A DNA stretch of 64,000 nt from Asterias amurensis (Eukaryota). The notes beneath the pieces are model-generated. The model searched no databases. It saw nothing but the letters and a program-made list of their open reading frames with translations, and had not been told where the DNA came from. Position numbers and translations under genes: made by a program. The stretch lies in NCBI RefSeq assembly GCF_032118995.1, contig NC_092655.1, forward strand, positions 14,525,223-14,589,222, read 5' to 3'. Shown in pieces: positions 2,225 to 64,000 of the stretch. The stretch's first letter is position 1, and every line of letters starts with the position of its first letter.

Positions 2225-3353
2225 AGCCTTGCATTAGAACTATTACTCCTGAGGCCTTTTGGCCAGCCAGGGCTGTATTTTACAATATTCTACAATCCTG
2301 TTATCTTTCTCAACTCCCTGGGGAGTATTTGGACCGAGCTGCCGTGACATTCTGAAGGCTTTTTCAAGCAAAATGCCCCTGTGTGAAAAGAAACATTTTA
2401 TAGTACTTAAAGCATCCTGCTCAAGGATACAAGTGTCATGACTGGGACTCGCACCCACCTTTCGATGACTTAATCATCACAGCTTGAATTTGATGCTCTG
2501 AACTACTTTGTCTTTACATTCAAGATACTCCATAGATATGGACATGGCCTGACAACACTTTTAAATAATACATATGAAATATCCATTCTAAAGTTCTTAT
2601 TCTTGCATAGTATCAGAACTGCTTCTTCCCAAAAAGTAACCATCGTCCCATGTTCTTTGATTATTGTCTACCGCCCACCTCGAATTCAACACTGGTCCTA
2701 TTCCTACACTCGCTACAGAAAACGCACCTTCTTGGTTGCCGCACACGCTCTCTGAAACAACCTTCTCATCCACATACCGTCCACATACCACACCTTCCCT
2801 ACTACATTGTTTGATTCTGTTTTAACCCTTTCACTTTTGTGCGCATGCCATTTAAAATTTGATAAACGTAATAAGGAAGTGTTCACTCATGCAGAAAGTC
2901 TGAGGGTTGATTTGGTAGAAATTAAAAAGCTACGACATTGGTCCATCAATACTTAGTGGCAGATTTTTTGTAACTTACGACAAATCCATTTCTAAGTAGG
3001 ATTTGAAACTTTGCATGGTGGAGATAAGATATAGAAGAGTTTGCGGTAACACCATGTAATAATAATCTTTAAATGAGTTAGGGTGGTTCTGAAAAGAACC
3101 GTTGGGTTAACTCTTTAAATCCATTTCTGATATGTTTTTCTAAATGTATACGTTTTTTGTAAACACCCTGTGTACTCTTTCAACTCTATAGTGTATACTC
3201 TCTATATTCTTACCATTGCACTCATAAAAATTCATTATTTGTGTATTATTTTCATTGTATTGTGTATTTAATTCCTTTTATGTTTCAGCGCTATATAAAT
3301 GCATGCTACTAGTATTAGTATACAATTCTCATGACACCATCCTTCTTTTCTAG

Positions 3354-5750: not shown

Positions 5751-6711
5751 CAAATTCTTTCAAGCCAGGTTCATACTTCCTGCGAATGCGAATGCATTTT
5801 GATGTCACAAATTCGCAATGAATAATTCGCATCAGTTGATTTGTGCTCAACCTTGCTACCATGAGCAGCGCGCTGTATCACGCTAGCTCTGCTAGCTTTT
5901 TATGACTTTTATTACACACAGCGCATCTAGCCTGTGCGCGACTAACGCCCAAATCACAACAGATCAACCACAGGACTAATTGTAATATTCCTTATATTTG
6001 GATATTTTGGAGTTACACTTCCAGGGGTTATGATCGAGCAAGGCATGCTGGGAAAAAATGGCGCAGCGAGATCGATCACCCCTGGGAACGAGGTTGATTT
6101 GTGCTCAACTCCCGTGAAACGCAGCTATGTGACGCCAAATTTTGCTTTGCATTCACATGCGCAGGAAGTATTAACCGGGCTTTACATTCAGTACATTATT
6201 CAGTACATTAGGGCATAATTCTAGAACTAGCTGTGAAAGATACACAGTCAACGTTGTCCATATCACCATTAGAATCTAGGCACATGCTTACACCATGCTA
6301 CTTTTCTGGTGTTAAACACTTCTGGGTGGTTCCGTAACCTCAAAATAACAACCATTTAGAACAACTGCGGACATAGCGTACATAGAAAGTGTGACGCTTT
6401 ACTGTGATTCCTGTACACCAACTAAAACTGTAGACAGGAGATTTATTGAGAATTTTTGAGCAAGTTTGGACAATGTTTCATTTAGACTCCCAAACAGTCG
6501 AATCAATTATAACACACAGTTGATGTCAACAGAATAGTTTTTATTTGAATTTTTGAGAAAACATTATAATCTGTTGCAAACTTGTTACCAAACCAAAATT
6601 AAAAAAGGGTCTTAGAAAAAGAGTTTAAGCAGAGTCTTTTTCCTCAGGCCACTTTTTCTTTTTCTAACACAAAAACACGATGGTTATGAAATTATTGTGT
6701 TATTTATACAG

Positions 6712-6961
6712 GAAACTCGGAGATGGTCTTTTCTTGAACAGCTGCCGTCAGATCTCAACCCTTTACCCCAAGATCCAGTTTGAGTCGATGATTGTGGATA
6801 ACTGTTGTATGCAGCTAGCGTCTAACCCCCACCAGTTTGACGTACTGGTGACCCCCAACCTGTATGGTAACATCGTGGATAATCTTGCCGCTGGCTTAGT
6901 GGGAGGAGCTGGAGTGGTACCGGGGGAGAGCTACTCAACTGAATATGCCATATTCGAGCCT
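6712..6961 (+). CDS. IDH3B: IDH3B-like exon
   Basis: (M)[83 protein letters not shown]. This is near-identical in pattern to vertebrate IDH3B (KLGDGLFL...[54 protein letters not shown]). Donor GTAGGT at 6962. Confidence 0.92.
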
Positions 6962-7609
6962 GTAGGTTGAAATAAGTAAACTTTTATTATTTATTAGTGT
7001 TTTTATATAATTCTGGTAATGAAACCAAGGATGACGATACCAATTTTAGTGGTGGGATCTAAATCCAATTTATTCCACCCAGGGCGAATGTTTAGGTATG
7101 GGGCCATCACTGCTGAAGTGCAATCTGGGGGAAATCTGTGCTGGGCAGCACTGTGTATCTTGCTCAGAGTGCTGGGCAAATTATTTTGGTTCTGGTGGCT
7201 ACTCTAAGCGAACTTTAATAATCACTGTAGTTGGTTGGCAAGCCTGAGGAAACCTGTAAACAAGGGTGCTTGCCGCGTAAACCAGAAACACCGGGGTTAA
7301 CCCCGACTCTTGATAAGTGTTTTGGGTTCTTTTACGTGCACTATCAATCCTAGTATATGGGACTCACAGCTTAATGCCCAACAGACGGACAAAGCGATTA
7401 TGGTAAAGTATCTTGCTCAAGTACACAAGTGTCATAACCCACACTCTGCTGATCAAAAAAACCAAAGCTTGAGTCCGGTGCTCTTAACTGCTCGCCCAGG
7501 ACTTGCCAAATCTTGTCTGTTGGTTGGTCCTCCCAATGTTGTAAACAAGCAATTGTGTATTTTTAAGAACCATTGGTAACTTCTATAAACATGTTGTTAT
7601 TTGGATCAG

Positions 7610-8155: not shown

Positions 8156-8668
8156 AACGTCAGGCACAAGTGTTATATGAGTAAGATTTGAAACTTTGCA
8201 CGGGGGCGGGAACACACAGTAAGGGTTGCAGAAGCACCATGTACATAAATGTCTCTACAAGTTGTGGTGATTCTGAAAAAAACCGACAGTTTGACAACTT
8301 GACATTTCCATCAGTATGATTGGACCATCTTCAGGAGTGTGCTGGACTTTGTTGCTTTGTGCTGTTTAATTTATACGTGCAGGGGCCAATTTAATGGCTC
8401 TGCTTACCGAATTCTGCGCTTGCAATCACCATTCTCCACTATTAGTGTAAGCGCTGAACTTCTGCACCAAGCAAAGAATGCCTAATATTAACGTGGGGTG
8501 TGACGCGCACAATCACAAACTCCCTGCTAACCTGTGAACTACGCTTGACTTAAAGCAGGGAGTTCCCTGCTTCCATAAGTTCAGATTCTTCAAAGCCATG
8601 AAAGTTGGCACAGGAGAAGACAAAGTTGTAAACTTATTTCCCGTTTTTCCTCTCTTTGCTCCCGACAG

Positions 8669-10321: not shown

Positions 10322-10460
10322 TGTGTGTGTCAGCACTGTGTACTCAGTACTTTCAAAATTTCTGTGAAAAAAAAAAATCCCAGGCATATTAGTCGGTGGT
10401 CAGGTTGGTAAGACATCTGCTCTAGATTGGCAAAGGTTGTGGGTTCGAATCCTACCCAAG
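10322..10460. mobile_element. Rearranged copy of the tRNA-like SINE family D
   Basis: The tail is in reverse orientation (cagcactgtgtactcagtactttc...tcccaggcatatt) and is followed directly by the tRNA-like head in forward orientation (gttggtaagacatctgctctagattggcaaaggttgtgggttcgaatcc). Compare the intact copies at 34222-34385 and 59337-59510. Confidence 0.5.
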
Positions 10461-10664
10461 TTGTGTGCAGTGCATTTACAAATTGTTTAAGAACAAACAT
10501 TGTTATTGTGAACACCTAGTCAAACTAGTTCCACCATAAAGTATGGTTAGTTTGCTAATTTGCCTGAGGATAAAGAAAGAAATAGCTTTAGAATTAAGTA
10601 GTTCATGTCTGATGAATCATTTATTAAAACTAACTTCCATCCATTGATTTTTCCCTGTTTGAAG

Positions 10665-10739
10665 GTTCGGACTCAGGACATCGGTGGGTACGCTTCAACC
10701 ACAGAGTTTACAAGTGCAGTCATTAACAACCTGCGATAG
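10665..10739 (+). CDS. IDH3B: IDH3B-like terminal exon, ends with a TAG stop at 10737-10739
   Basis: VRTQDIGGYASTTEFTSAVINNLR* against beta-subunit [23 protein letters not shown]. Acceptor tgtttgaag at 10662-10664. Confidence 0.85.
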   Translation, partial: VRTQDIGGYASTTEFTSAVINNLR

Positions 10740-10857
10740 GACTATCCAAGCAATGAAAACCATTGAAGCATTACAGTCAATGTAAAAGGTCAACAAACTC
10801 AGGAACTTAAAAATAGAGCCCTCATCAACACCCTGCTGCTTTGCTATTTTGTGAATT

Positions 10858-11075
10858 CTATAGACGATGTGACCTATGTTTACATTCAAACCGCCCTCTG
10901 TTGACAAAACACTATATACGTCATGTTTCGCCGGGCAAAAACACCCGTAGTCATGGTAAGATTGCATACACTTTCTAGCTGGCTGCTGAAATACAAAGGT
11001 TTTGCCCGGCGGTATGCGCGCGAATCATGTTATGATTTTCGAGTGACGTCAGAGGTCACATCGTCTATAGCCATT
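10858..11075. mobile_element. MITE family M7 (17-bp TIR TATAGACGATGTGACC)
   Basis: ctatagacgatgtgacc ... ggtcacatcgtctatag. Copies with the same TIRs at 31913-32123 and 63683-63903. Confidence 0.7.
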
Positions 11076-17100: not shown

Positions 17101-17220
17101 TAAAATGAGAATGATGTTTGTTCAATCATTATCATTGTTTGAATTCTGCCTCTTTTGAAGAGGAATTCTTAACATACAGCACTTAAATTTGTTTCTCTCT
17201 CTCAATAATATTTATTTCAG

Positions 17221-27924: not shown

Positions 27925-28065
27925 TTTTACCCATGCATACTGATGTGTTTAAGCACTGTACACTCAGTACTTTCCCGAGCTCTGTGAAAAAAATCACAGG
28001 CATATTGGTGGGTGGGATTCAAACCCACAACCTTTGCAATTCTAGAGAAGAGTCTTATGTTGCTG
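27925..28065 (-). mobile_element. SINE family D copy (minus)
   Basis: The reverse complement contains ctctagaattgcaaaggttgtgggtttgaatcccaccc...atgcctgtgatttttttcacagagctcgggaaagtactgagtgtacagtgct. Matches 34222-34385 and 59337-59510. Confidence 0.55.
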
Positions 28066-38379: not shown

Positions 38380-38625
38380 TTATAGAAAGGTTTGTGGTAA
38401 TACCATGTAATGACTATCTCTAATGAGTTGAGGTGGTTCTGAAAAGAACCGTTGGTTTCAACTCTTGAGTTGAAACCAACAGTACTTTTTAGAACCAACC
38501 CAAGAAAACCAGTTGTTCTTTTCAGAACCACCCCAACTCATTAGAGATAGTCATTACATGGTGTTACCGCAAACCTTTCTATATTGTATTTCCACCATGC
38601 AAAGTTTCAAATCCTACTTAAGCTG
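38380..38625. mobile_element. Palindromic MITE family M8
   Basis: ggtttgtggtaataccatgtaatgactatctctaatgagttgaggtggttctgaaaagaaccgttgg ... ttcagaaccaccccaactcattagagatagtcattacatggtgttaccgcaaacc. Copies at 45270-45495, plus partials at 2990-3120 and 8190-8290. Confidence 0.65.
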
Positions 38626-45269: not shown

Positions 45270-45495
45270 TATAGTAAGGTTTGTGGTAACATCATGTTAT
45301 GATAATCTCTAAATGGGTTGGGATGGTTCTGAAAAGAACCATGGGGTTCAACTCAAGGTTTTGATCAGTATGCTCTAACGTAGAATCTCCAGAAGACGAT
45401 CAGACCATTTTGAGATTATCATTACATGGTGTAATTAACCACAAACCTTACTGTATCATATTTCCACCATGCAAAGTATCAAATCCTACTAAACC
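45270..45495. mobile_element. Palindromic MITE family M8 copy, ending ~25 bp upstream of MVP exon 23
   Basis: aaggtttgtggtaacatcatgttatgataatctctaaatgggttgggatggttctgaaaagaaccatgggg ... gaccattttgagattatcattacatggtgtaattaaccacaaacctt. Confidence 0.6.
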
Positions 45496-47538: not shown

Positions 47539-47646
47539 GCGGAGCTTCTGGGGAGCCTTGGGATCGAGACTACACTCATAATGGATGGTGACAATCCTGT
47601 CAACTTGTTCAATACAGCCAAGGGCATGATATCAGGGCACCAGTGA
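47539..47646 (+). CDS. MVP: MVP terminal exon, TGA stop at 47644-47646
   Basis: [35 protein letters not shown] against MVP [32 protein letters not shown]. Acceptor ctttgtag. Confidence 0.9.
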
Positions 47647-47807
47647 GAAACCAACAAGGAAGGTCGGTATAATAATGAATGTTACCCAATGGGTATAGAT
47701 ACATAAGTGAATACCCATTGGGTAGCTGATATCTGTTGACATATTTAGGCTGTATCTAAAGTGTTGGTCAGACCTGTAAAAAATAGACTGCCAACCGTTA
47801 CATAGGT

Positions 47808-48517
47808 TTAAAGGCAGTGGACACTATGTGTAACTGTCAAAGACTAGCCTTCACAGTTGGTGTATCTCAACATATGCATAGAATAATAAACATGTGAAAT
47901 TTGAGCTCAATCGGTCATCGAACTTGCGAGATAATAATGAATGAAAAAAACACCCTTGTCACACGAAGTTGTGTGCATTTAGATGGTTGACTTCGAGACC
48001 TCAAGTTCTGAATCTGAGGTCTTGAAATCAAATTCGTGGAAAATTACTTCTTTCTCAAAAACTACGCCACTTCAGAGGGAACCGTTTCTCACAATGTTTT
48101 ATACCACCAACCTCTCTCCATTACTCGTCCCCAAGAAAGGTTTTATGCTGATAATTATTTTGAGTAATTACCAACAGTGTCCACTGCCTTTAAAGGCACT
48201 TGACACCTTTTCATGGTAATATTGTCCAAGACCAGTGGTGTATCCCTACATGCATGAAATAACACATCTGTGAAAACTTGGACTCAATTGATCGTCAAAG
48301 TTACGAGAGAATAATAAAAGAAAAGCACCCTTTTTGCACAAATTTGTGTGCTTACAGATGGCTACACAAATATTAAAAGACTTCAGGTCCGAAGCCTTTT
48401 TTTTAAATATTAAAATATTCAGAGGGAGTTGTTTCTCACAGTGTGTTTTTTTTCTTAACATGCAGCTCGCCATGCTGTATTTTGATTAATTACCAATAGT
48501 GTCCAGTGCCTTTAATG
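47808..48517. mobile_element. Two M1 MITEs inserted in tandem, sharing a TTAA junction
   Basis: First copy at about 47808-48194 (gtttaaaggcagtggacactatgtgtaactg ... attaccaacagtgtccactgcctttaa). Second, more diverged copy at about 48195-48517 (aggcacttgacaccttttcatggtaat ... attaccaatagtgtccagtgcctttaa). Confidence 0.65.
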
Positions 48518-51129
48518 ATCTTGTGAATGTCAGTTGGGAAACAGTCATTATTGTTTTTGAGTAACCTGAAATGGAGGTCAACAATTTCATACTTACTGCG
48601 AATACTAATCATGTGAAGTGAATTTGACAGCACAGCCAAACTCTTGCATACTGTTTGCTATGAATTTGCGATTGTCAAATTCACTTTGCATTCGTATTTG
48701 CAGGAAGTGTTTTAACAAGTTTTATTCTGACATTTCTTATTCCTTTTTTAAACAAAATATGATATTTTTGATGCATTTAGTGAATTTGTAACTTTCAGTT
48801 GCTGTTTCAAATTCATATTTATATGCCAACATTCAGACCCCCTTGCTCTAAACTAACTCTTGGTCAGAAATGATACGAAGTTAAGTTGCAGTTGAGGTTT
48901 GGTGCAACTCCAACCGCTGTCTAGCGTTGCCTATTTCACATGAGGTCTCTAAATGATGGTCGTTGGGGAACATTTGCATCGGCGCATTGTAAAAAAATCG
49001 CAAATCTGCCTTGTGTGAAATGAACCTGTGTGATGAAATCGCCACAGACCTGCATAATAAACAACTAGGGCGAACATCTCGAAAAATCGCATCCCTGTTT
49101 AGAATTGGCAAGATCAGTGGTGTGAAACGACGCACGCCATTATAAATAACAAATGAAAAAAAAAATGATTTTGTATGCGCACACTATTAAGCAGCACACG
49201 CCATCAGTCGATGGATAAAAGGTTGTTTGTTTATTTGAGGCATCCATCAAATTGGCAGAGGGCAGAACAATTGTTGTTGTTGAAATTTTGTATTTAAGAT
49301 TGCTTTCCTCAAAGTTTTCATGCTATGACCAATAAGCGTCCGATCAAGAAAGCCTTGAAATTTCCATTTTCCGACAAAATACTCTTACTCATCTCAAGAG
49401 TCGGGAAGCTGATAAGTCGTAAAAAAACAACCCACAAATGTCGCGCCCAGAAAGTGATCCGCGGTAACCTAATGCAGTTAAAAGCAGAATGCACTTCCTG
49501 AACAACTTGCACTTGCTTCTGGCAAAGATTGATACTGTTGACAGTAAGCAATAGGCGTAATGTAGATTGCAGTTTTGTAGGTTAGATGTTATCATAGAAA
49601 CACAATGTCAAATTGATGTACATACATTAATAAATAATATTCTGTGATAAGCAGTGCCTGGCGCAATTTCAAAGAGCTGCTTTAAGCACGAAAAGTAGCT
49701 AAACACAATCAAATCATGCTTACCAGAACGAGGTCGCCAGCAAAAGTACCATTTCACATGTACAATCTGTGACTGGTATCCTGTATATTTACGCTAAGCA
49801 GAACATGTTCAAGCAATTTTTTCTGCTGAAGCACTTCTATGAAGTAAGTTGGGCCCAGGTTGTTACAGCCTTTGCTTTCATAGATTTCTGATATTATAAA
49901 TTATCACACAAGCGCGAGTGGAATACGAAAAAAAATATCGCGCTTCCGCGCCCCATATCCAAAGTTTAGAATGTAATTTTTTCACTGTTTGATATGGCGC
50001 GTGACAAAATGACATTTCAAAACACGCACTGTGTAATAAAAACAGAGGAGGTAGGGTATAAAACAGAGGTCATAGCATATATGTTTTTATCCCCCTAGTA
50101 GTTCAAGCATCTGATTAGTGGGTTAGCGCGTACTGGAAGATAAATTCAAATGTGCTCACAATAAAGTTCCTTAATTTACAAACTATAACATGCTCCCACA
50201 AAACATGATATGTTGTTATCAATGCTAAGAATTATTAATATTTGAAACAATAGATGTAAAGTGAAGGAGAATTGTAGATATTACTCCACTCAAGAATTTA
50301 TGGATGTATTAATATGTAAAGAAAATAATTTATGATTTAACAAAAAAATACTAGTCTTTATACCTTTATAAATGTTTATGTTTAAGTTGTCCTGTAATCA
50401 GTGGCTGAAACGATGAATGAGAATTCTTGGATTTTCTCTTCGAGTACCTCTTGGATGAAAATATATCTTGTATTTTTGATAGTAATAGTATTTTTTGAAT
50501 TGATATGCAATAAAAGTAGTTTTATGAAAATGCCTTTATTCTGTCTGTTTTCAGTATAATGGCCATTTCAAACTTTATTAATAATAATAATAGTAATAAT
50601 AACCTTATTTATAACGCGCCTTTTGCCAAAGGATACAAAGCGCCAGGTATTATTACTGCAAGGAGTGGGGCGAATTTTGAGATATAAGACCTAATCGTTA
50701 AGCACCGTGTAATGGTTTACAAGGTGCTGTGGCGCAATATGCTGCCAATCTATTGTGACTCAATAATGTTGCCAAATGTTTGTGATGTTTTTTAGCATGG
50801 ACATGATGGAAAGCACTCAATCGGTATGTTTCACAGGGCCCGAAAAGCACAAAAACTTGCAAAACTCTTTATAAGGTTAGTATTTGGTAACCAGGCAAAG
50901 TACGCTACAGTTGCCGTCTCTGTGACTTGTACCCCACTAATTTCTAACAAGCAAAAAGTGCTAAGCAGAATCTTCTGCTATGAAAGTCGCATAGCTCTGC
51001 TTACCGTAAAACAAAGATTCCAAGCTTACACATTACAGGAGCAGGGAAATTTGCGCTGATGTCTAGCGAATTTCACAGGGTAGCTGGGATTGCTTGTGTG
51101 CCTGCGTACTAAGTGTAATTAGGAAATTA

Positions 51130-54100
51130 TAAAATCGCTAGGGGTAAGTCCAGCATTTTGACCAATATGGGCGAAAAATTATTGCAAGGGGTAAGGCCAG
51201 CGTCTAAAACAATTCAAATTTGCGCCAAAAGTCCGACATTTTTTCTAATTTATGGCCAGAAACTAAAAAATCACAAGGGGGTAAATCCACCATTTTTATC
51301 AAATTTAAGCAAAAGAAAATTGAGGAAAACAAAATTTTAAAAACGCATGGGGTAAGTTCAGCATTTGTATCAAATTTAGACAAAAAATTGAAAAAATCAC
51401 AAGGGGGTAAGTCCAGAATTTTTATCAAATTTAGGCCTAAAATTAAGGAATTTCACAACGGTGTAAGTCAAGCAGTGTTATCAAATTTAGGCGAAATTGA
51501 AGAATTTCACAAGGGGTAAAATTTTTATTAAATTTCAGCAAAAAATTGAAAAAATCACAAGGGGGTAAGTCCAGAATTTTTATCAAATTTAGGCCTAAAA
51601 TTAAGGAATTTCACAACGGTGTAAGTCAAGCAGTGTTATCTAATTTAGGCCTAAAATTGAAGAATTTTACAAGGGGTAATGGTAAGTCCAGCATTTTAGT
51701 CAAATTTAGGTGAAAAAAATGAAACAAATCACAAGGGGTAAGTCCAGCATTTTTACTAAATTTGTGCGAACAATTGAAAAAGTCACAAGGGGTAAGTCCA
51801 GGATTTTAATCAAATTTAGGGCCAAAAACAAAAAATCACAAGGGGTAAGTCAAGCATTTTGTAACAAATTAAGGTTGGAAATTTAAAAAATCACAAGGGG
51901 TAAGTTCAGCATTTTTTTTCAAATTTAGGCGAAAATTTGAAGAAAAATCATAAGGGGTAAGTCCAGCATTTTTATCAAATTTAGGCCAAAAATTAAAAAA
52001 AATCACAAGGGGTAAGTTCAGCATTTTTATCAAATTAAGGCCTAAAATTGAAGAATTTCACAAGGGGTAAGTCCAGCATTTTTTTTTTATTTTGTGCAAA
52101 AAATTAAAAACACAAACTTTAGGGCAAAAAATAGAAAACATCAGAAGGGGAAAGTCCAGCATTTTTGACAAATTTAGGCAAAAAATTGAACAAATCACAA
52201 AGGGTAAGTTTAGCATTTTTATCAAATTTAGGCCTAAAATAGAAAAAATCACAAGGGGTGAGTTCAGCAATATTATCAAAATAAGGCAAAAAATGAAAAA
52301 ATCACAAGGGGTACGTCCGGCATTTTTTATCAAATTTAGGCCTAAAATTTAAAAAATCACACGGGGTAAGTTCAGCATTTTTATCAAATTAAGGCCTAAA
52401 ATTGAAGAATTTCACAAGGGGTAAGTCCAGCATTTTTTTTTATTTTGTGCAAAAGATTGAAAAAAAAAACAAATTTAGGGCAAAAAATTGAAAAAATCAC
52501 AAGGAGAAAGTTCAGCATTTTTGACAAATTTAGGCGAAAATTGAACAAATCACAAAGGGTAAGTTTAGCATTTTTATCAAATTTAGGCCTAAAATAGAAA
52601 AAATCACAAGGGGTGAGTTCAGCATTATTATCAAATTAAGGCAAAAAATTCAAAAATCAAAAGGGGTACATCCGGCATTTTTATCAAATTTAGGCCTTAA
52701 CTAGAGAAATCACAAGGGGTAAGTCCAGCTATTTTCGTAAATTTATGCAAAAAACTTAAAAAAAAGGGGTAAGTTCAGCATTTCTATCAAATTAAGGCAA
52801 AAAATTGAAAAAATCACAAGGGGTAAGTTCAGCATTTTTATCAAATTTAGGCCAGAAATTTAAAATATCCCAAGGGGTAAGCCCAGAATTTTTTTCACTT
52901 TTAGGCCTAAAACTGAGGAATTTCACAAGGGTTAATCCAGCATTTTTTTCAAATTTAGTCAAAAAATTGAACAAATCACACGGGGTAAGTTCAGCATTTT
53001 TAACAAATTTAGGCCTAAAATTGAAGAATTTCACAAGGGGTAAGTCCAGCATTTTTACTTAATTTGTGCGAACAAGGTGCGAACAATTGAAAAAGTCACA
53101 AGGGGTAATTTAGGGCCAAAAATAGAAAAAATCACAAGGGGTAAGCCCAGCATTTTTAACCAATTTAGGCGAAAAAAAATGATAAAAATCACAAGGGGTA
53201 AGTTCAGCATTTTTATCTAATTTAGGCCTAAAATTGAAGAATTTTACAAGGGGTAATGGTAAGTCCAGCATTTTAGTCAAATTTAGGTGAAAAAAATGAA
53301 ACAAATCACAAGGGGTAAGTCCAGCATTTTTACTAAATTTGTGCGAACAATTGAAAAAGTCACAAGGGGTAAGTCCAGGATTTTAATCAAATTTAGGGCC
53401 AAAAACAAAAAATCACAAGGGGTAAGTCAAGCATTTTGTAACAAATTAAGGTTGGAAATTTAAAAAATCACAACGGGGTAAGTTCAGCACATTATCAAAT
53501 TTAGGCGAAAATTTGAAAAAAATCATAAGGGGTAAGTCCAGCATTTTTATCAAATTTAGGCCAAAAATAGAAAAAATCATAAGGGTAAGTTCAGCATTTC
53601 TATCAAATTTAGGCCTAAAATTGAAGAATTTCACAAGGGGTAAGTCCAGCATTTTTATCAAATTTATCCTAAAATTAAAAAAATCACATGGGGTAAGTTC
53701 AGCATTTTTATCAAATTAAGGCCTCAATTTGAAGAATTTCACAAGGGGTAAGTCCAGCAGTTTTACTTAACTTGTGTGAACAATTGAAAAAGTCACAAGG
53801 GGTAATTTAGGGCCAAAAATAGAAAAAATCACAAGGGGTAAGCCCAGCATTTTTAACCAATTTAGGCGAAAAAAAATGATAAAAATCACAAGGGGTAAGT
53901 TCAGCATTTTTATCAAATTTAGGCCTAAAATTGAAGAATTTCACAAGGGGTAAGTCCAGCATTTTAATTAAATTTAGGCGAAAAACTGAAAAAAATTACA
54001 AGGGGTAAAATCCAACATTTTTATAAAATTTCGGCCAAAAACTGAAAAAATCACAAGGGGGTAAGTCCAGCATTTTAATCAAATTTAGGGCAAAAAATGA

Positions 54101-57100
54101 TAAAAATCACAAGGGGTAAGTTCAGCATTTTTATCAAATTTAGGCCTAAAATTGAAGAATTTCACAAGGGGTAAGTCCAGCATTTTAATTAAATTTAGGC
54201 GAAAAACTGAAAAAAATTACAAGGGGTAAAATCCAACATTTTTATAAAATTTCGGCCAAAAACTGAAAAAATCACAAGGGGGTAAGTCCAGCATTTTAAT
54301 CAAATTTAGGGCAAAAAATAGAAAAAATCACAAGGGGTATGTCCAGCTATTTTCGTAAATTTATGCGAAAAGCTTAAAAAATCACAAGGGGTAAGTTCAG
54401 CATTTCTATCAAATTAAGGCAAAAAATTGAAATCACAAGGGGTAAGTTCAGCATTTTTATCAAATTTAGGCCCCAAATTTAAAATATCACAAGGGGTAAG
54501 TCCAGCTTTTTTGACAAACTTAGGCGAAAAATTGAACAAATCACAAGGGGTATAGCATTTTTATCAAATTTAGGCCAAAAATAGAAAAAATTAGCATTTT
54601 TATCAAACAAAGGCAAAAAATGAAAAAATCACAAGGGGTACGTCCGGCATTTTTATCAAATTTAGGCCTAAAATTGAGAAATCACAAGGGGTAAGTCCAG
54701 CTATTTTCATAAATTTATGTGAAAAACTTAAGAAATCACAAGGGGTAAGTTCAGCATTTTTACTAAATTTGTGCGAACAGTTGAAAAAGTCACAAGGGGT
54801 AAGTTCAGCATTTTTATCAAATTTAGGAGAAAAATTTAAAAAGCCCAGAATTTTTTTCACTTTTAGGACTAAAACTGAGGAATTTCACAAGGGTCCAGCA
54901 GTTTTATCAAATTTAGGCAAAAAATTGAACAAATCACACGGGGTAAGTTCAGCATTTTTAACAAATTTAGGCCTAAAATTGAAGAATTTACAAGGGGTAA
55001 GTCCAGCATTTTTACTAACTTTGTGTGAACAGTTGAAAAAGTCACAAGGGGTAATCAAATTTAGGCAAAAAATTGAACAAATCACAAGGGGTAAGTTCAG
55101 CATTTTTAACAAATTAGGCCTAAAATTGAAGAACTTCACAAGGGGTAAGTCCAGCATTTTTAGTAAATTTGTGCGAACAGTTGAAAAAATCATAAGGGGC
55201 AAGTCCAGCATTTATATCAAATTTGGGCAAAAATTGAACAAATCACAAGGGGTACGTCTGGCATTTTTGTCAAATTTAGGCCTAAAATTGAAGAATTTCA
55301 CAAGGGGTAAGTCCAGCATTTTTACTAAATTTAGGTGAAAAATTGAAAAAAATCACAAGGGGTAAGCCCAGAATTTTTATCAAATTTAGGCCTAAAACTT
55401 AAAAATTTCACAAGGGGTAAGTCCAGCATTTTTATCAAATAAAGGCAAAAAATTGAAAAAATCACAAGGGGTAAGCCCAGCATTTTTAACAAATTTAGGC
55501 GGAAAAATTAAAAAAAATCATAAGGGGTAAGCCCGGAATTTTTATCAAATTTAGGCCTAAAACTGAAGAATTTCACAAGGGGTAAGTCCAGCATTTTTAA
55601 CAAATTTAGGCCTAAAATTGAAGAATTTCACTAGGGGTAAGTCCGTCTTTTTACTAGTGCGAACAATTGAAAAAATCACAAGGGGTAAGTCCAGCATTTT
55701 TGAAAATTTTAGGCGAAAAAATGAAAAAATCACAAGGGGTAAATTCAGCGTTTTTATCAAATTTTGGCGAAAAATTGCATAAATCACAAGGGGCAAGTCC
55801 AGCATTTCAATCAATCTTAGGGCCAAAAATAGAAAAAAATCACAAGGGGTAAGTCCAGCATGTTTGACAAATTTAGGCGAAAAAATGAAAAAATCACAAG
55901 GGGTAAGTTCAGCATTTTTATCAAATTTAGGCCAAAAATTTAAAATTCACAAGGGGCAAGCAAGTCCAGCATTTGTATCAAATTTAGGCCAAAATTAGAA
56001 AAAAATCACATTTAGGCCAAAAATTGAAAAATTTCACAATGGGTAAGTCCAGCATTTTTATTAAACTTAGGCAAAAAATTGAAAAAAATCATAAGGGGAA
56101 AGTCCAGCATTTTTAACAAATTTAGGCGAAAAAATGAAAAAAACACAAGGGGTAAGTCCAGCATATTTATCAAATTTAGGCCAAAAATAGAAAAAATCAC
56201 AAGGGGTAAGTTAAGCATTTTTATCAAATTAAGGCAAAAATTGAACAAATCACAAGGGGTACGTCCGGCATTTTTATCAAATTTAGGCCTAAAATAGAAA
56301 AATCACAAGGGGTAAAGTTCAGCATTTTTATCAAATTTAGGCAAAAAATTCAAAAAATCACAAAGGTCCAGCATTTGTACCAAATTTAGGCCTAAAATAG
56401 AAGAAATCACAAGGGGGTAAGTCCAGCTATTTTCGTAAATTTATGCGAAAAACTTAAAAATCACATGGGGTAAGTTCAGCATTTCTATCAAGGCAAATTA
56501 AGGCAAATTAAAGCATTTTAAACAAATTTAGCCTAAAATTGAAGAATTTTACAAGGGGTAAGCCCAGCATTTTTATCAAATTTAAGCGAAAAATTGAAAA
56601 ATTCTTAAGGGGCAAGTCCAGCATTTCTATCAAATTAAGGCAAAAATTTAACAAATCACAAGGGGTACGTCCAGCAATTTTTATCAAATTTAGGCAAAAA
56701 ATTGATAAAATCACAAGGGGTAAGTCCAGCATTTTTAACGAATTTAGGCCTAAAGTTGAAGAATTTCACAAGGGGTAAGTCCAGCATTTTTACTAGATTT
56801 GTGGGAACAATTGAAAAAGTCACAAGGGGTAAGTCCAGGATTTTAATCAAATTTAGGGCCAAAAACAAAAAATCACAAGGGGTAAGTCAAGCATTTTGTA
56901 ACAAATTAAGGTTGGAAATTAAAAAAATCACAAGGGGTAAGTTCAGCATTTTTTTCAAATTTAGGCGAAAATTTGAAAAAAATCATAAGGGGTAAAATCC
57001 AGCATTTTTATCAAATTTAGGCCAAAAATAGAAAAAATCACAAGGGGTAAGTCAAGCATTTTTGACAAATTTAGGCGAAAAAATGAAAAAATCACAAGGG

Positions 57101-57440
57101 GTAAATTCAGCGTTTTTATCAAATTTAGGCGAAAGTTGCAAAAATCACAAGGGGCAAGTCCAGCATTTTAATCAAATTTAGGGCCAAAAATAGAAAAAAA
57201 TTACAAGGGGTAAGTCCAGCATTTTTATCAAATTTAGGCCTAAAATAGAAGAAATCACAAGGGGTAAGTCCAGCTATTTTCATAAATTTATGCGAAAAAC
57301 TTAAAAAATCACAAGGGGTAAGTTCAGCATTTCTATCAAGGCAAATTAAGGCAAATTAAAGCATTTTAAACAAATTTAGCCTAAAATTGAAGAATTTTAC
57401 AAGGGGCAAGTCCAGCATTTTTACTAAATTTGGGCCAAAA
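51130..57440. repeat. 6.3 kb minisatellite, ~55-bp unit in ~115 copies with higher-order repeat blocks
   Basis: Unit consensus cacaaggggtaagtccagcatttttatcaaatttaggcctaaaattgaagaattt, with variants (...aaaaatagaaaaaat..., ...gtgcgaacaattgaaaaagt...). Multi-unit blocks recur: 51665-51895, 53235-53465 and 56795-56935; 53093-53215 and 53793-53915; 53943-54170 and 54173-54400. The ORFs called on both strands are low-complexity artefacts of the repeat. Confidence 0.9.
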
Positions 57441-58392
57441 ATTCTATACTACATGTATTCATGGAAAAACTGAGGTAATAATGGTACAGCACCAAACAGT
57501 GACAGCGTTTCAGACAAATTTATTTGTGCAATAGACTTCCTTCCAGTATTTCTTACTGAGTCAACTAAATTGTCCTTCATGTACAAGTTTAATTGTGTCT
57601 ACTTTCTTACCATAACTTCTCTACTTTCATCTAAGAGTGCATAGAGAACTCTCTTTGTATGTACTATACAAGAATGGTTCAAGTGTCAATGGACCGATCC
57701 GGCCTGTCAATCAAACTGTATGCGTTCACCCATTTTGACTTATCACAGCAATGATTGTGGTCGGACAAACTCGGTCATGCATGCGCGTATATTTGGCACG
57801 CGCGGCAGAACCGTGCAGAATGTCATTGGGAGTGCTTGTACACGTGTCTTGCTCACGTGCGCGGTGGGCGGAGCTTAGTGGAAAGCCGGAACGGTCCATA
57901 CTGGAACACTAATCCATGCTCTGCTGATCAGAAACCCCCAGGGCCAAACTTCATACAGCTGGCTAAGCAGAAAAAGTAGCTAAGCGCAACAAAAGTTTGC
58001 TTACCAGCGTAAGATTACCAGCCAAACTACCATGTTACATGTACAATTTAAGACTGGTTTTCAATCTGGCTCATCTCTGCTTAGCAGAAAAATGTTAAGC
58101 AATGCTTTCTGCTTAAACAACTCTTTGAAATTGGGCCCAGAGATTGAGTCCAGTGCGCTTGACCACTTGGTCAAGACAAGCCGCCTTGAAGCTTGACGTT
58201 TTGTACAGCTCTTAAGGGCTATTTGCATACTGTTTTATTCAGAAAAGGTATATACTTACAAGATAAAAATAGCCCTAAACATTGAACCCTGATCCTTCTC
58301 ATCTTCACAACATTGAGCAAGTTGGATTGTCACGTTAAAGAAAGGTAGTACAATCAAAAGCGCATGTTAGTATACAAAATTTATATATTGTT

Positions 58393-58760
58393 AAAGACAG
58401 TGGACACTATTGGTAATTGTCAAAGACAAGCCTTCACAGTTGGTGTATCTCAACATATGCATCAAATAACAAACCTGTGAAAATTTGAGCTCAATCGGTC
58501 ATCAAAGTTGCAAGATAATCATGAAAGAAAAAAAGGTTGTGTGCTTTCAGATGCTTGATTTCGAGACCTCAAATTCTAAATCTGAGGTCTCGAAATCAAA
58601 TTCGTTAAAAATTACTTTGTTCTCGAGCACTACATCACTTCAGAGGGAGCCGTTTCTCACAATGTTTTATACTATCAACCTCTCCCCAATACTTGTCACC
58701 AAGACAGAGTTTATGATAATAATTATTTGAGTAATTACCAATAGTGTCCACTGCCTTAAA
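58393..58760. mobile_element. MITE family M1 copy
   Basis: gttaaagacagtggacactattggtaattg ... aattaccaatagtgtccactgccttaaag. Confidence 0.7.
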
Positions 58761-59336
58761 GTCGACCCATGATTGACCACTGACTAGCGATGACATGCGT
58801 AGTGTTGCACTCGCTCAAAATGACTTAGGAAATCTAGTCACCCATCGATATTCCGCTTTTTTTGCTATACTCTAACTGTTCCGCTTCTGTGCTTCCCACA
58901 TGTTAGCCTAGAACATGCTATCGGGACCACGGAAGAAACCATGGTCCTGAGGCTGGTTCCAAATGGTCGGCTGCAGTAGTCAAACCAAGGTCAACAAGCC
59001 TGGGTTCGAGTCAAAATAGTCAACCGTGGGGCTCACTCGCACTTGCTCATTGTTGCCAAAGAACGTTAACAGGGATGTACACAGTCAAACAATAAGTAAG
59101 AATATGTTATTCACACACAGCGTACATTCACATACAGCGTACATTCACATCAAACTATTGGATTAAACGATACTGATGGGTATCTAGCAAAATACACATT
59201 TTTACTGGAGAAAAAATAACTTTACAAAAATGAGCCGTCTCTGGGCATTGTGAAATAAATGGGCCCTGAGAGGTTCATTTTGTTTGGCATCGTCCAGGAA
59301 TCAGACACTTATCAAAAAGTCTGTTATCCAGCTGTC

Positions 59337-59510
59337 GGGCAACCTCGGTAGTCTAGTTGGTAATAAGACACTGCTCTAGAATTGCAAGGGTCGTGGGTTG
59401 GAATCCCACCCGAGTAACATGCCTGTGATATTTTTTCACATGATTCGAGGAAAGTACCGAGTATACAGTGCTAGCACACATCGGAGTATGGGTAAAAACC
59501 AAAATTAAAA
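59337..59510 (+). mobile_element. SINE family D copy
   Basis: gggcaacctcggtagtctagttggtaataagacactgctctagaattgcaagggtcgtgggttggaatcccacccgagtaacatgcctgtgatattttttcacatgattcgaggaaagtaccgagtatacagtgctagcacac. Confidence 0.55.
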
Positions 59511-62048: not shown

Positions 62049-62271
62049 GGGACCTACAGCTTTACATCTCGTCTATAGGACGCAGCAATAATGGTTAATG
62101 TAACAGTACATACCTTTTTTGAGGGAACAGTGCACAGCACATGGGTGTTGCAAAGACCAACCTACATGTATACAAAGCAAGATATAAAAGTTAGCTTATA
62201 GGAAAAAGTGACATCAACACAAGATAATGAAAAATTTGATTAGCATATGAGAGCCCAAGACTCTGCTTTGA

Positions 62272-62651
62272 CGACTCTGGACAGTATTGGTAATTGACCA
62301 GTCTTCTCACTTGGTATATCTCAACATATACATAAAACAGCAAACCACTGAAAAATTTTAGCTCAATTGGTCGTCGCAGTTGCGAGATATAATAATAAAA
62401 TAAAAAACACCCTTGTCACACGAAGTTGTGTGCTTTCAGATGCTTGATTTCAAGACCTTCAAAGTCTAATTCTGAGGTCTCAAAATCAGATTCACGGAAA
62501 AATACTTCTTTCTCAAAAACTACCTCACTTCAGAGGGAGCCATTTCTCACATGGTTATATACTATCAACAGCTCTCTATTGATTGTTACCAAGTTAGGTT
62601 TTATGCTAATAATTACTTTGAGTAATTTCCAACAGTGTCACCTGCCTTTAA
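62272..62651. mobile_element. MITE family M1 copy
   Basis: ctggacagtattggtaattgacc ... agtaatttccaacagtgtcacctgcctttaa, with the internal gatttcaagaccttcaaagtctaattctgaggtctcaaaatc palindrome. Confidence 0.6.
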
Positions 62652-63682
62652 CTTGTTTGTCTTGTGATATTTTGTTCCCATGGAACGTCAACACTTTAAA
62701 ACCCCTTTTGTACAACTGAAAATTGTATCTCTGACTATAGAGACAGTTGCAGAGTCACATAATTTGGGTCAAGCTTTTGAGTAGTTACGTAAGAGACGGT
62801 GAACACCCATACAAACAGATACCAGGGTTTGCTCATCTGGAGGTTGCTATACAAAAGCTTGCCCCGAACCATTTGACATAGCAACTGTCATTATAGTCTA
62901 CATGAGAAACTCAAATGTAAGCGTTAAATTGTGACTAAGCAGGTCATTGTACAAAACACTATTCAAATCTAACTCGCAAATGGCTTATTGAGAGAGCATC
63001 TTAAAACTGTTTTGATTGTGGCTTGTTTAACATCGAACATATTTGAGTTAACTTACGTCAGACCTACTAGGCCCACTTGTATTGGTGCGTTCATAACTGG
63101 GTAGCGCTTCAGAAATGCACCTTTTTCCAACTTGTTCATGATTAATGGTGGGATGCCTTTGGGATTAAAACAAAAATATTAACCTTTCAGATCTATATAC
63201 ATATATTTTTTTTGTGAGGCGTCACCCCAACTCACAAGGCCAGACGGCCACTTCAAGGTGAAGCTTACAAAACTGACCCGGATCAGTTGTCACCATTGGG
63301 ACATGACCGCCTACTCCTGGAGATGAAAAAAGGGTTACCCCACTTCACAGTCAGGTAGGATGTAGGCATGGGTATCATCCACTAGGAGCCTGGTTGCCCC
63401 ATAGCATATCATGATGGCATGGGGTCCCAGGGAAAGCTGGAAAAGAGCGATGGAAGATGAGAGAAGGCGTCGGGAAGCTGATGATAATGAAGATGAATGA
63501 AGGGCTACGAGGTCATGGAGATAAACTGGGGCCAAATTATGAACAACTTTTTACAGTAAGCAGAAAAAAAAGTAACTATAAATACTAAAAAGTAAACTTG
63601 TGGGTACAACTATGTATAAGATCTCTTTTGAGGGAGTGTTGGCTCTGAAAACAGCTGGTGTGGTCTGGACATTTTGAACAGT

Positions 63683-63903
63683 ATAGACGATGTGACCTCT
63701 GACGTCACACGGAAACCATAACATGATTCGCGCGCATACCGCTGGGCAAAACCTTTGTGTTTTGGCAGCCAGCTAGAAAGTGTATGCAATCTTACCATGA
63801 CTACGTGTCTTTTTGCCCGGCGAAACATGACGTATACAGTGTTTTGTCAACAGAGGGCAGTTTGAATGTAAACATAGGTCACATCGTCTATACTCTGCTC
63901 GTC
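63683..63903. mobile_element. MITE family M7 copy
   Basis: tatagacgatgtgacctctgacgtcacacgg ... ataggtcacatcgtctatac. Confidence 0.7.
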
Positions 63904-64000
63904 TTCAGGATACAAGCAGAGTATACTCTTTGAAATGTCGAGAATACTCTGCTCGTCTTCAGGAGCGTGCAGAGTATACTGTTGGAAACGTCGAGACCAA

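Follow-up and report, generated by a model that had tools for sequence, protein, structure and literature searches.

A 54-bp tandem array downstream of MVP in Asterias amurensis is probably an expanded member of a satellite family dispersed in forcipulatid sea stars

The 64,000-nt stretch of the sea star Asterias amurensis analyzed here (hereafter the window; assembly GCF_032118995.1, contig NC_092655.1, positions 14,525,223 to 14,589,222 of the forward strand) contains, downstream of the major vault protein gene (MVP), a 6.3-kb array of tandem repeats with a 54-bp unit. We consider it likely that this array is a non-coding satellite or minisatellite, a locally expanded member (~116 units) of a 54-bp family dispersed in forcipulatid sea stars, and that it has no sequence-specific function. 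It shows the attributes of a satellite: tandem units in a single orientation, non-coding character, and relatives at other loci and in other species with a change in copy number. The simplest account of the sequences would have the family consist mostly of short arrays of 2–20 units near or within transcription units, with occasional expansion. The family is apparently undescribed and would be a new entry among the catalogued repeats of asteriid sea stars; a literature search returned no paper on this 54-bp unit, its flank sequences, accession JACSEG, or any Asterias satellite.

Results

Several methods agreed on the extent of the MVP-proximal array. Tandem Repeats Finder (TRF) reported head-to-tail repeats with a period of 54–55 bp in overlapping calls spanning 51331–57339, fit-alignment segmentation with the consensus unit recovered 109 full-length units at 51136–57450, and self-similarity placed the borders at 51124–57444 (outermost limits over methods 51124–57450, + strand, ~6.3 kb). 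About 10 gaps of 28–45 nt between full units correspond to truncated units, giving a total of ~116 unit-equivalents, and all units share one orientation. A preliminary description of this DNA had counted ~115 A/T-rich units over 6.3 kb, and both the count and the composition hold (109 full and ~10 truncated units; GC 0.31–0.33 vs ~0.39 in the remaining window). Its 55-bp consensus is right as to the period of 54–55 bp, but captures a single sub-variant (...GGCCTAAAATTGAAGAATTT), whereas the consensus by majority, of 54 bp, reads CACAAGGGGTAAGTCCAGCATTTTTATCAAATTTAGGCCAAAAATTGAAAAAAT.

The array has an AT skew of +0.2, with an A- and G-rich + strand. Its units vary in length (54 bp, n = 47; 55 bp, n = 22; 53 bp, n = 21; plus others) and differ by ~22% on average (mean pairwise identity 78%). 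Per-position conservation reaches 87–100% over the 5' 25 nt, and the A-rich 3' part is more variable; the conserved 28-nt core in the 5' half reads CACAAGGGGTAAGTCCAGCATTTTTATC. A near-palindrome, CAAATTTAGG/CCTAAAATTG, lies near the 3' half of the unit. This palindrome is weak, and we rejected a structured DNA or RNA hairpin as an explanation, as the unit folds no better than shuffled sequence. A 37-nt unit core, searched with ≤3 mismatches, gave 44 matches, all within the array, vs 0 in shuffled sequence, and a hidden Markov model of the unit run over the whole window on both strands found no match outside the array. Searching the array against Rfam returned no family at gathering or permissive thresholds, not even at E≤10. 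At its edges the array degenerates progressively into unique sequence. The array and its degenerate edge are as follows.

51136–57450, + strand: tandem array of the 54-bp unit (TRF, segmentation, conservation profile, self-similarity)
51136–51343, + strand: degenerate left edge, where divergence of the units is greatest (mean alignment score 58 vs ~75 in the interior; segmentation)

The 54-bp family occurs on at least 8 unrelated contigs, and the unit is therefore not specific to the MVP locus, a point on which the preliminary description had asked for a check; it had also named such a lack of locus specificity as a reason for less interest in the array. We refer to contigs with family arrays as L001–L010 and to a 60-kb Asterias rubens locus (LR699110.1) as L011. 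A unit-core pattern scan of metagenomes recovered three contigs, all from assembly JACSEG01, among them L003. This contig contains an uninterrupted 1760-aa complement C3-like open reading frame (ORF), whose product is 82% identical to the C3-like protein of A. rubens, 60–61% to those of Patiria and Acanthaster, and 33% to that of sea urchin. Since its alignment to the A. rubens gene splits into ~40 exon blocks, we regard L003 as a transcript, with its introns removed, from a related forcipulatid sea star. It carries a 12-unit array 3.2 kb past the C3 stop codon, in the 3' untranslated region (UTR) and antisense to the mRNA. The same UTR is collinear with A. rubens genomic DNA, where two degenerate units stand at the corresponding point (L011 54030–54124). 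The orthologous array thus has 2 units in A. rubens vs 12 in L003, a copy-number change between species. Directly beside the 54-bp array of L003 lies an unrelated 70-bp satellite (10436–11039; 8.7 copies, 88% matches, higher periods of 209 and 279 bp).

Two further sites lie within the A. rubens locus. One, ~5 kb from the first, comprises three units (L011 59573–59716). The other (L011 59388–59440) is the counterpart of the first site in a 1.45-kb inverted duplication downstream of the C3-like gene (L011 55472–54023 on the − strand vs 58043–59446 on the + strand, 85% identity), each arm of which ends in two degenerate 54-bp units and includes another tandem repeat.

Plankton metagenomes yielded additional members. 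The window's 189-aa array ORF retrieved seven predicted proteins (15 in an exhaustive search), all from SOLA coastal Mediterranean plankton metagenomes, and the contigs that are sources of such array-like proteins (L004–L010) hold arrays of 5–19 units. Among them, the L006 array contains a head-to-head inversion, and the L009 array is interrupted by a miniature inverted-repeat transposable element (MITE) whose family has many copies in the window and in A. rubens but none in the Patiria sample. Consensus units of seven related arrays are near-identical over the first 28 nt and differ mainly at positions 29–40. Members lie antisense in the L003 C3-like transcript, in the L001 transcript and at the orthologous A. 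rubens site, and in both orientations in L006 and L011. With 18 codons per unit and no stop in four of the six frames, such arrays lead gene callers to predict "proteins"; the predicted proteins P0020–P0034 (ENA SOLA22-1 metagenome assemblies), with their 18-residue repeats of the KSQGVSPAFLSNLG type, are satellite translations and hence spurious gene calls.

Outside these sources the unit was not found in ~265 kb sampled from Patiria, sea urchin and brittle star (0 hits in a reversed-sequence control), nor did it turn up when bacterial genomes, archaeal genomes and viral contigs were scanned. For the window as a whole, 616 repeat matches were counted in the 60-kb locus of A. rubens (the best at 96.7% over 275 bp), vs 16 in Patiria miniata, 2 in Strongylocentrotus and 1 in Amphiura in equivalent samples. 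On repeat sharing by itself, the window would be assigned to an asteriid sea star, A. rubens or a near relative of it.

Within the array, eight block pairs of 136–289 bp are 93–96.5% identical and lie at irregular offsets (158, 221, 355, 697, 848, 1577, 3460 and 5037 bp). Given that block copies are 95–96% identical and background units 78%, we interpret the pairs as recent duplication events on an old background. Unit identity is flat with lag (mean 0.77–0.79 over lags 1–24), and autocorrelation of diagnostic variant positions across the array showed no significant periodicity. A regular higher-order repeat (HOR) was rejected on these two grounds and because the block pairs are isolated: the blocks are sporadic two- or three-copy segmental duplications with no array-wide higher-order period. 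The sole HOR-like stretch is a 221-bp four-unit tandem duplication at 53865–54347. Both block families named in the preliminary description are real and close to where it placed them, namely a 230-bp block at 51665, 53235 and 56795 (measured here as 51618–51906, 53195–53483 and 56762–56963) and a four-unit block at 53943 and 54173 (53865–54126 and 54086–54347). Recurring multi-unit blocks thus stand, but not the HOR organization like that of classical satellites that had been read from them, which the flat lag profile and lack of periodicity contradict. The blocks are listed below.

51363–51498, + strand: 136-bp block, repeated at 51521–51656 (92.6%, offset 158)
51618–51906, + strand: five-unit block, first copy, matching 53195–53483 (289 bp, 96.5%); unit-class string BCDE.FG
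51725–51926, + strand: distal 202 bp of the five-unit block, matching 56762–56963 (95%)
52178–52314, + strand: 137-bp block, repeated at 52533–52669 (94%, offset 355)
53072–53259, + strand: 188-bp block, repeated at 53769–53956 (94.7%)
53195–53483, + strand: five-unit block, second copy
53865–54347, + strand: four-unit (221-bp) block, local tandem duplication of 2.2 copies (96%), class string GKLMGKLM; 53865–54126 matches 54086–54347
56447–56584, + strand: 138-bp block including an aberrant unit (...CAAGGCAAATTAAGGCAAATTAAAGCAT), repeated at 57295–57432 (92.8%)
56762–56963, + strand: five-unit block, third, partial copy

The gene upstream was delimited with homologues carrying the Pfam domains PF01505 (Vault) and PF11978 (MVP-shoulder), which place MVP exons on the + strand at 17212–47643 (tblastn). 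Its end is annotated as follows.

47539–47646, + strand: last coding exon and stop codon of MVP (stop 47644–47646; tblastn of MVP homologues, translation)

The array starts 3.49 kb past this stop codon on the same strand, which agrees with the ~3.5 kb given previously. From the MVP stop to the window end we found only interspersed repeats (MITEs and heads of tRNA-derived short interspersed elements, SINEs), with no coding evidence and no ORF with a Pfam match. Because coding evidence is lacking throughout this interval, the array most likely lies in what looks, from its sequence, like intergenic DNA.

The window as a whole consists of 52% repeated sequence. An abundant ~370-bp MITE with terminal inverted repeats TTAAAGNCAGTGGACACTATTGGTAATT has at least 13 window copies (e.g. 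47804–48518, 58374–59025 and 62260–62660); it is common to A. rubens (84–94% identity) and a plankton-metagenome contig, and absent from the Patiria sample. Three tRNA-Ser(AGA)-like sequences (10389–10464, +; 59342–59418, +; and a fragment at 28009–28057) are 80% alike with imperfect structure, and are most likely heads of a tRNA-derived SINE, not tRNA genes. The Rfam family of the histone 3'-UTR stem-loop (CCAACGGTTCTTTTCAGAACCACC) is matched twice above its gathering score, at 3061–3105 (−) and 38410–38455 (−). Both matches sit within a dispersed, partly palindromic interspersed repeat with no adjoining histone genes, and related copies occur at 8180–8285 and 45270–45490. Judged by its sequence, this repeat looks like a mobile element with a canonical hairpin for the stem-loop-binding protein (SLBP). 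An exon-like ORF with an NAD-isocitrate dehydrogenase signature lies upstream of MVP (6680–6970, +), and two small tandem repeats at 63890–63996 and 59109–59150 (53 bp x 2.0 and 17 bp x 2.5) are unrelated to the 54-bp family.

Discussion

The window array has grown by duplication of single units and multi-unit blocks, possibly through unequal exchange or replication slippage. The family itself may owe its spread across the genome to a mobile element or some similar route of dispersal, as conserved modules flank short arrays in relatives. A near-identical consensus among species could arise without selection, since the consensus of many copies tends to restore the ancestral unit, and the weaker conservation of the 3' half would fit its A-runs. 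Some points weigh against this reading. The abundance of the family genome-wide is extrapolated from ~125 kb of sampled Asterias-type genomic DNA, which contained three independent family sites. Two of the A. rubens mini-loci had to be rejected as independent transposed copies, being arms of the local 1.45-kb inverted duplication. The flank modules of L001, L002, L004 and L005 do not occur beside the window array, so that we can only infer a transposon origin for it. The unit is better conserved in its 5' half than in its 3' half, which, together with its near-identical consensus in several species, could reflect constraint. Finally, the motif content of the units leaves a low-probability possibility that sense-strand U1 sites play a role in MVP read-through transcripts.

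Such a role is what a U1 snRNP-binding array would imply: ~70 strong 5' splice-site motifs on MVP read-through RNA might attract U1 small nuclear ribonucleoproteins (snRNPs) and thereby suppress the cleavage and polyadenylation of this RNA (telescripting), prevent a poly(A) tail from being added, or hold the transcript back by tethering it. Telescripting is established in human, mouse and Drosophila (PMC5499120). The motif does lie on the MVP strand, 3.5 kb past the stop codon; exact GGTAAGT occurs in 69 array units vs one further copy elsewhere on that strand of the window, and the 6.3 kb of AT-rich array contains a single AATAAA. All three sea-star transcripts with the family carry members antisense, as if sense copies were excluded from mature mRNA (n = 3, not significant). 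However, the motif is degraded. Where the preliminary description credited each unit with a perfect 5' splice-site consensus, most units do carry a strong motif complementary to U1 on the MVP strand, yet GGGGTAAGT occurs in 59/103 aligned units, GT at +1/+2 is retained in 91/103, G stands at position −2 where the consensus has A (a strong site but not a textbook one), and ~40% of the units have lost the exact motif, with variants including GTAAGC, GTAAAT, GCAAGT and GTACGT. The donor 9-mer (unit positions 6–14) is no better conserved than its neighbours (mean 0.93, vs 0.95 for positions 1–9, 0.92 for 17–25 and 0.92 for another 9-nt window), GTAAGC predominates in place of GTAAGT in the related L004 array, members lie at many loci in both orientations relative to genes with no consistent sense orientation, and MVP has its own canonical AATAAA signals 239 and 667 nt past the stop. 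A 3' splice-site-like TTTTTATCAAATTTAG/G, present in ~60% of window units, has its AG replaced by GG in most related arrays. GGG/GTAAGT thus appears to be simply part of the well-conserved 28-nt 5' half of the unit, with no sign of special function. We consider a U1-binding function very unlikely, and the earlier suggestion of telescripting or polyadenylation suppression found no support given the degraded motif, its lack of excess conservation, the GTAAGC array and the antisense members. A broader version, to which we assign a slightly slimmer chance still, would make the family a lineage-specific "U1 sponge" whose 28-nt core is kept because sense arrays a few kb beyond genes, here MVP, bind many U1 snRNPs on read-through RNA. 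If true, this binding might cause retention on chromatin or stop poly(A) sites farther downstream, or the following gene, from being used; within 3' UTRs, antisense copies would be tolerated, and the family would be a repeat-encoded, transposon-spread device shaping transcription units.

The remaining explanations concern the origin, the reality and the coding potential of the array. It is unlikely that one mobile element (a tandem-repeat-containing MITE or a non-autonomous Helentron) inserted with the whole 6.3 kb as its central repeat module, in place of a free-standing satellite. In relatives, conserved modules do bracket short arrays: two units separated by a ~130-bp spacer recur as one composite on the sea-star contigs L001 and L002 (79–81% identity) in unrelated surroundings, a 19-nt junction of these conserved flanks is also common to L005, and L004 has four short arrays, with a left module (83% identity) aligned before three and a right module after three. 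The family is dispersed, the near-palindrome in the unit resembles DTC84 core repeats (PMC3879986), and comparable elements spread satellite-like arrays in oysters (PMC7492417). At the window array, by contrast, the borders show no module, terminal inverted repeat or shared junction, the edges decay gradually into unique sequence, and 116 units far exceed the 1–5 core repeats reported for such elements. An inverted-repeat scan around the array found only intra-unit palindromes and unrelated MITEs (few flanked copies are available for defining termini), and the flank modules were not found in the A. rubens sample. An assembly artefact, in which a collapsed or mis-expanded repeat would make the copy number and block pattern unreal, has to be considered because tandem repeats are prone to mis-assembly and several 200–290 bp blocks are 95–96.5% identical. 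We find this hardly credible, as the ~22% mean unit difference leaves most units unique and hence provides ample assembly anchors, the array has no runs of identical units and no N gaps, and the same kind of array occurs on independent contigs from other data sets. Close to negligible, in our view, is the prospect that the units are spliced-leader-like small-RNA genes or pseudogenes (in which an Sm-like site comes after a 5' splice site, here with a would-be leader ...AATCACAAGGG) or that the array encodes a repeat protein. Some related arrays do have an Sm-site-like AAATTTTGGG ~20 nt after the donor motif, but window units have the non-canonical AAATTTAGG at this place; for this reason, for the lack of any Rfam match, and because the 22% divergence of the units is unlike that of functional gene arrays, we rejected an array of spliced-leader or snRNA-like genes. 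A 54-bp unit also leaves no space for a promoter, and echinoderms are not known to use trans-splicing. Four open frames in the consensus unit would favor a coding repeat protein, which we likewise rejected: units of 53, 55 and 56 bp break the frames, the longest array ORF is 189 aa, and neither array ORFs nor flanking ORFs have a Pfam match.

We therefore favor an expanded satellite array of the dispersed family. As it stands, the array is of little importance in itself; it adds a dispersed satellite family and a further example of short gene-near arrays expanding at some loci, and would gain in importance only if its sense-strand U1 sites proved to affect how MVP transcripts form their 3' ends or read through. 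There are also practical consequences: metagenome gene callers translate 54-bp arrays into spurious proteins, and the family is usable as a marker of sea-star DNA in plankton metagenomes.

Comparison with known systems places the array among several kinds of repeats without full identity to any. Like primate alpha satellite with its HORs, it has multi-unit blocks more similar to each other than neighbouring single units are, one of them (221 bp) tandemly doubled; unlike alpha satellite, it has no regular multi-monomer period, its blocks having 2–3 copies at irregular spacing. With U1 telescripting (PMC5499120) it shares dense sense-strand U1-recognition matches and few AATAAA downstream of a gene, but known cases use ordinary intronic 5' splice-site-like sequences and no dedicated repeat array, and the motif of the 54-bp family has neither excess conservation nor a consistent orientation to genes. 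DTC84 of Donax trunculus and the pearl/CvA elements of oysters, which are MITEs (PMC3879986), and the Helentron-borne Cg_HINE (PMC7492417) are matched by the L001, L002 and L004 arrays between conserved modules, by the near-palindrome near the 3' half of the unit and by the dispersal of the family. The window array differs from them in having no such flanks, terminal inverted repeats, AA target-site duplication or terminal microsatellite, in being 20–100 times longer than their central arrays, and in its unit of 54 bp vs ~150–170 bp. Dispersed euchromatic satellites of marine invertebrates, such as the Crassostrea gigas satellitome (PMC8268682, PMC10048060), differ in taxon, the present family belonging to asteriid sea stars with a genome-wide abundance that is extrapolated; they resemble it in their short AT-rich unit, variant sub-families, scattered short arrays near genes with occasional long ones, and copy-number differences between species.

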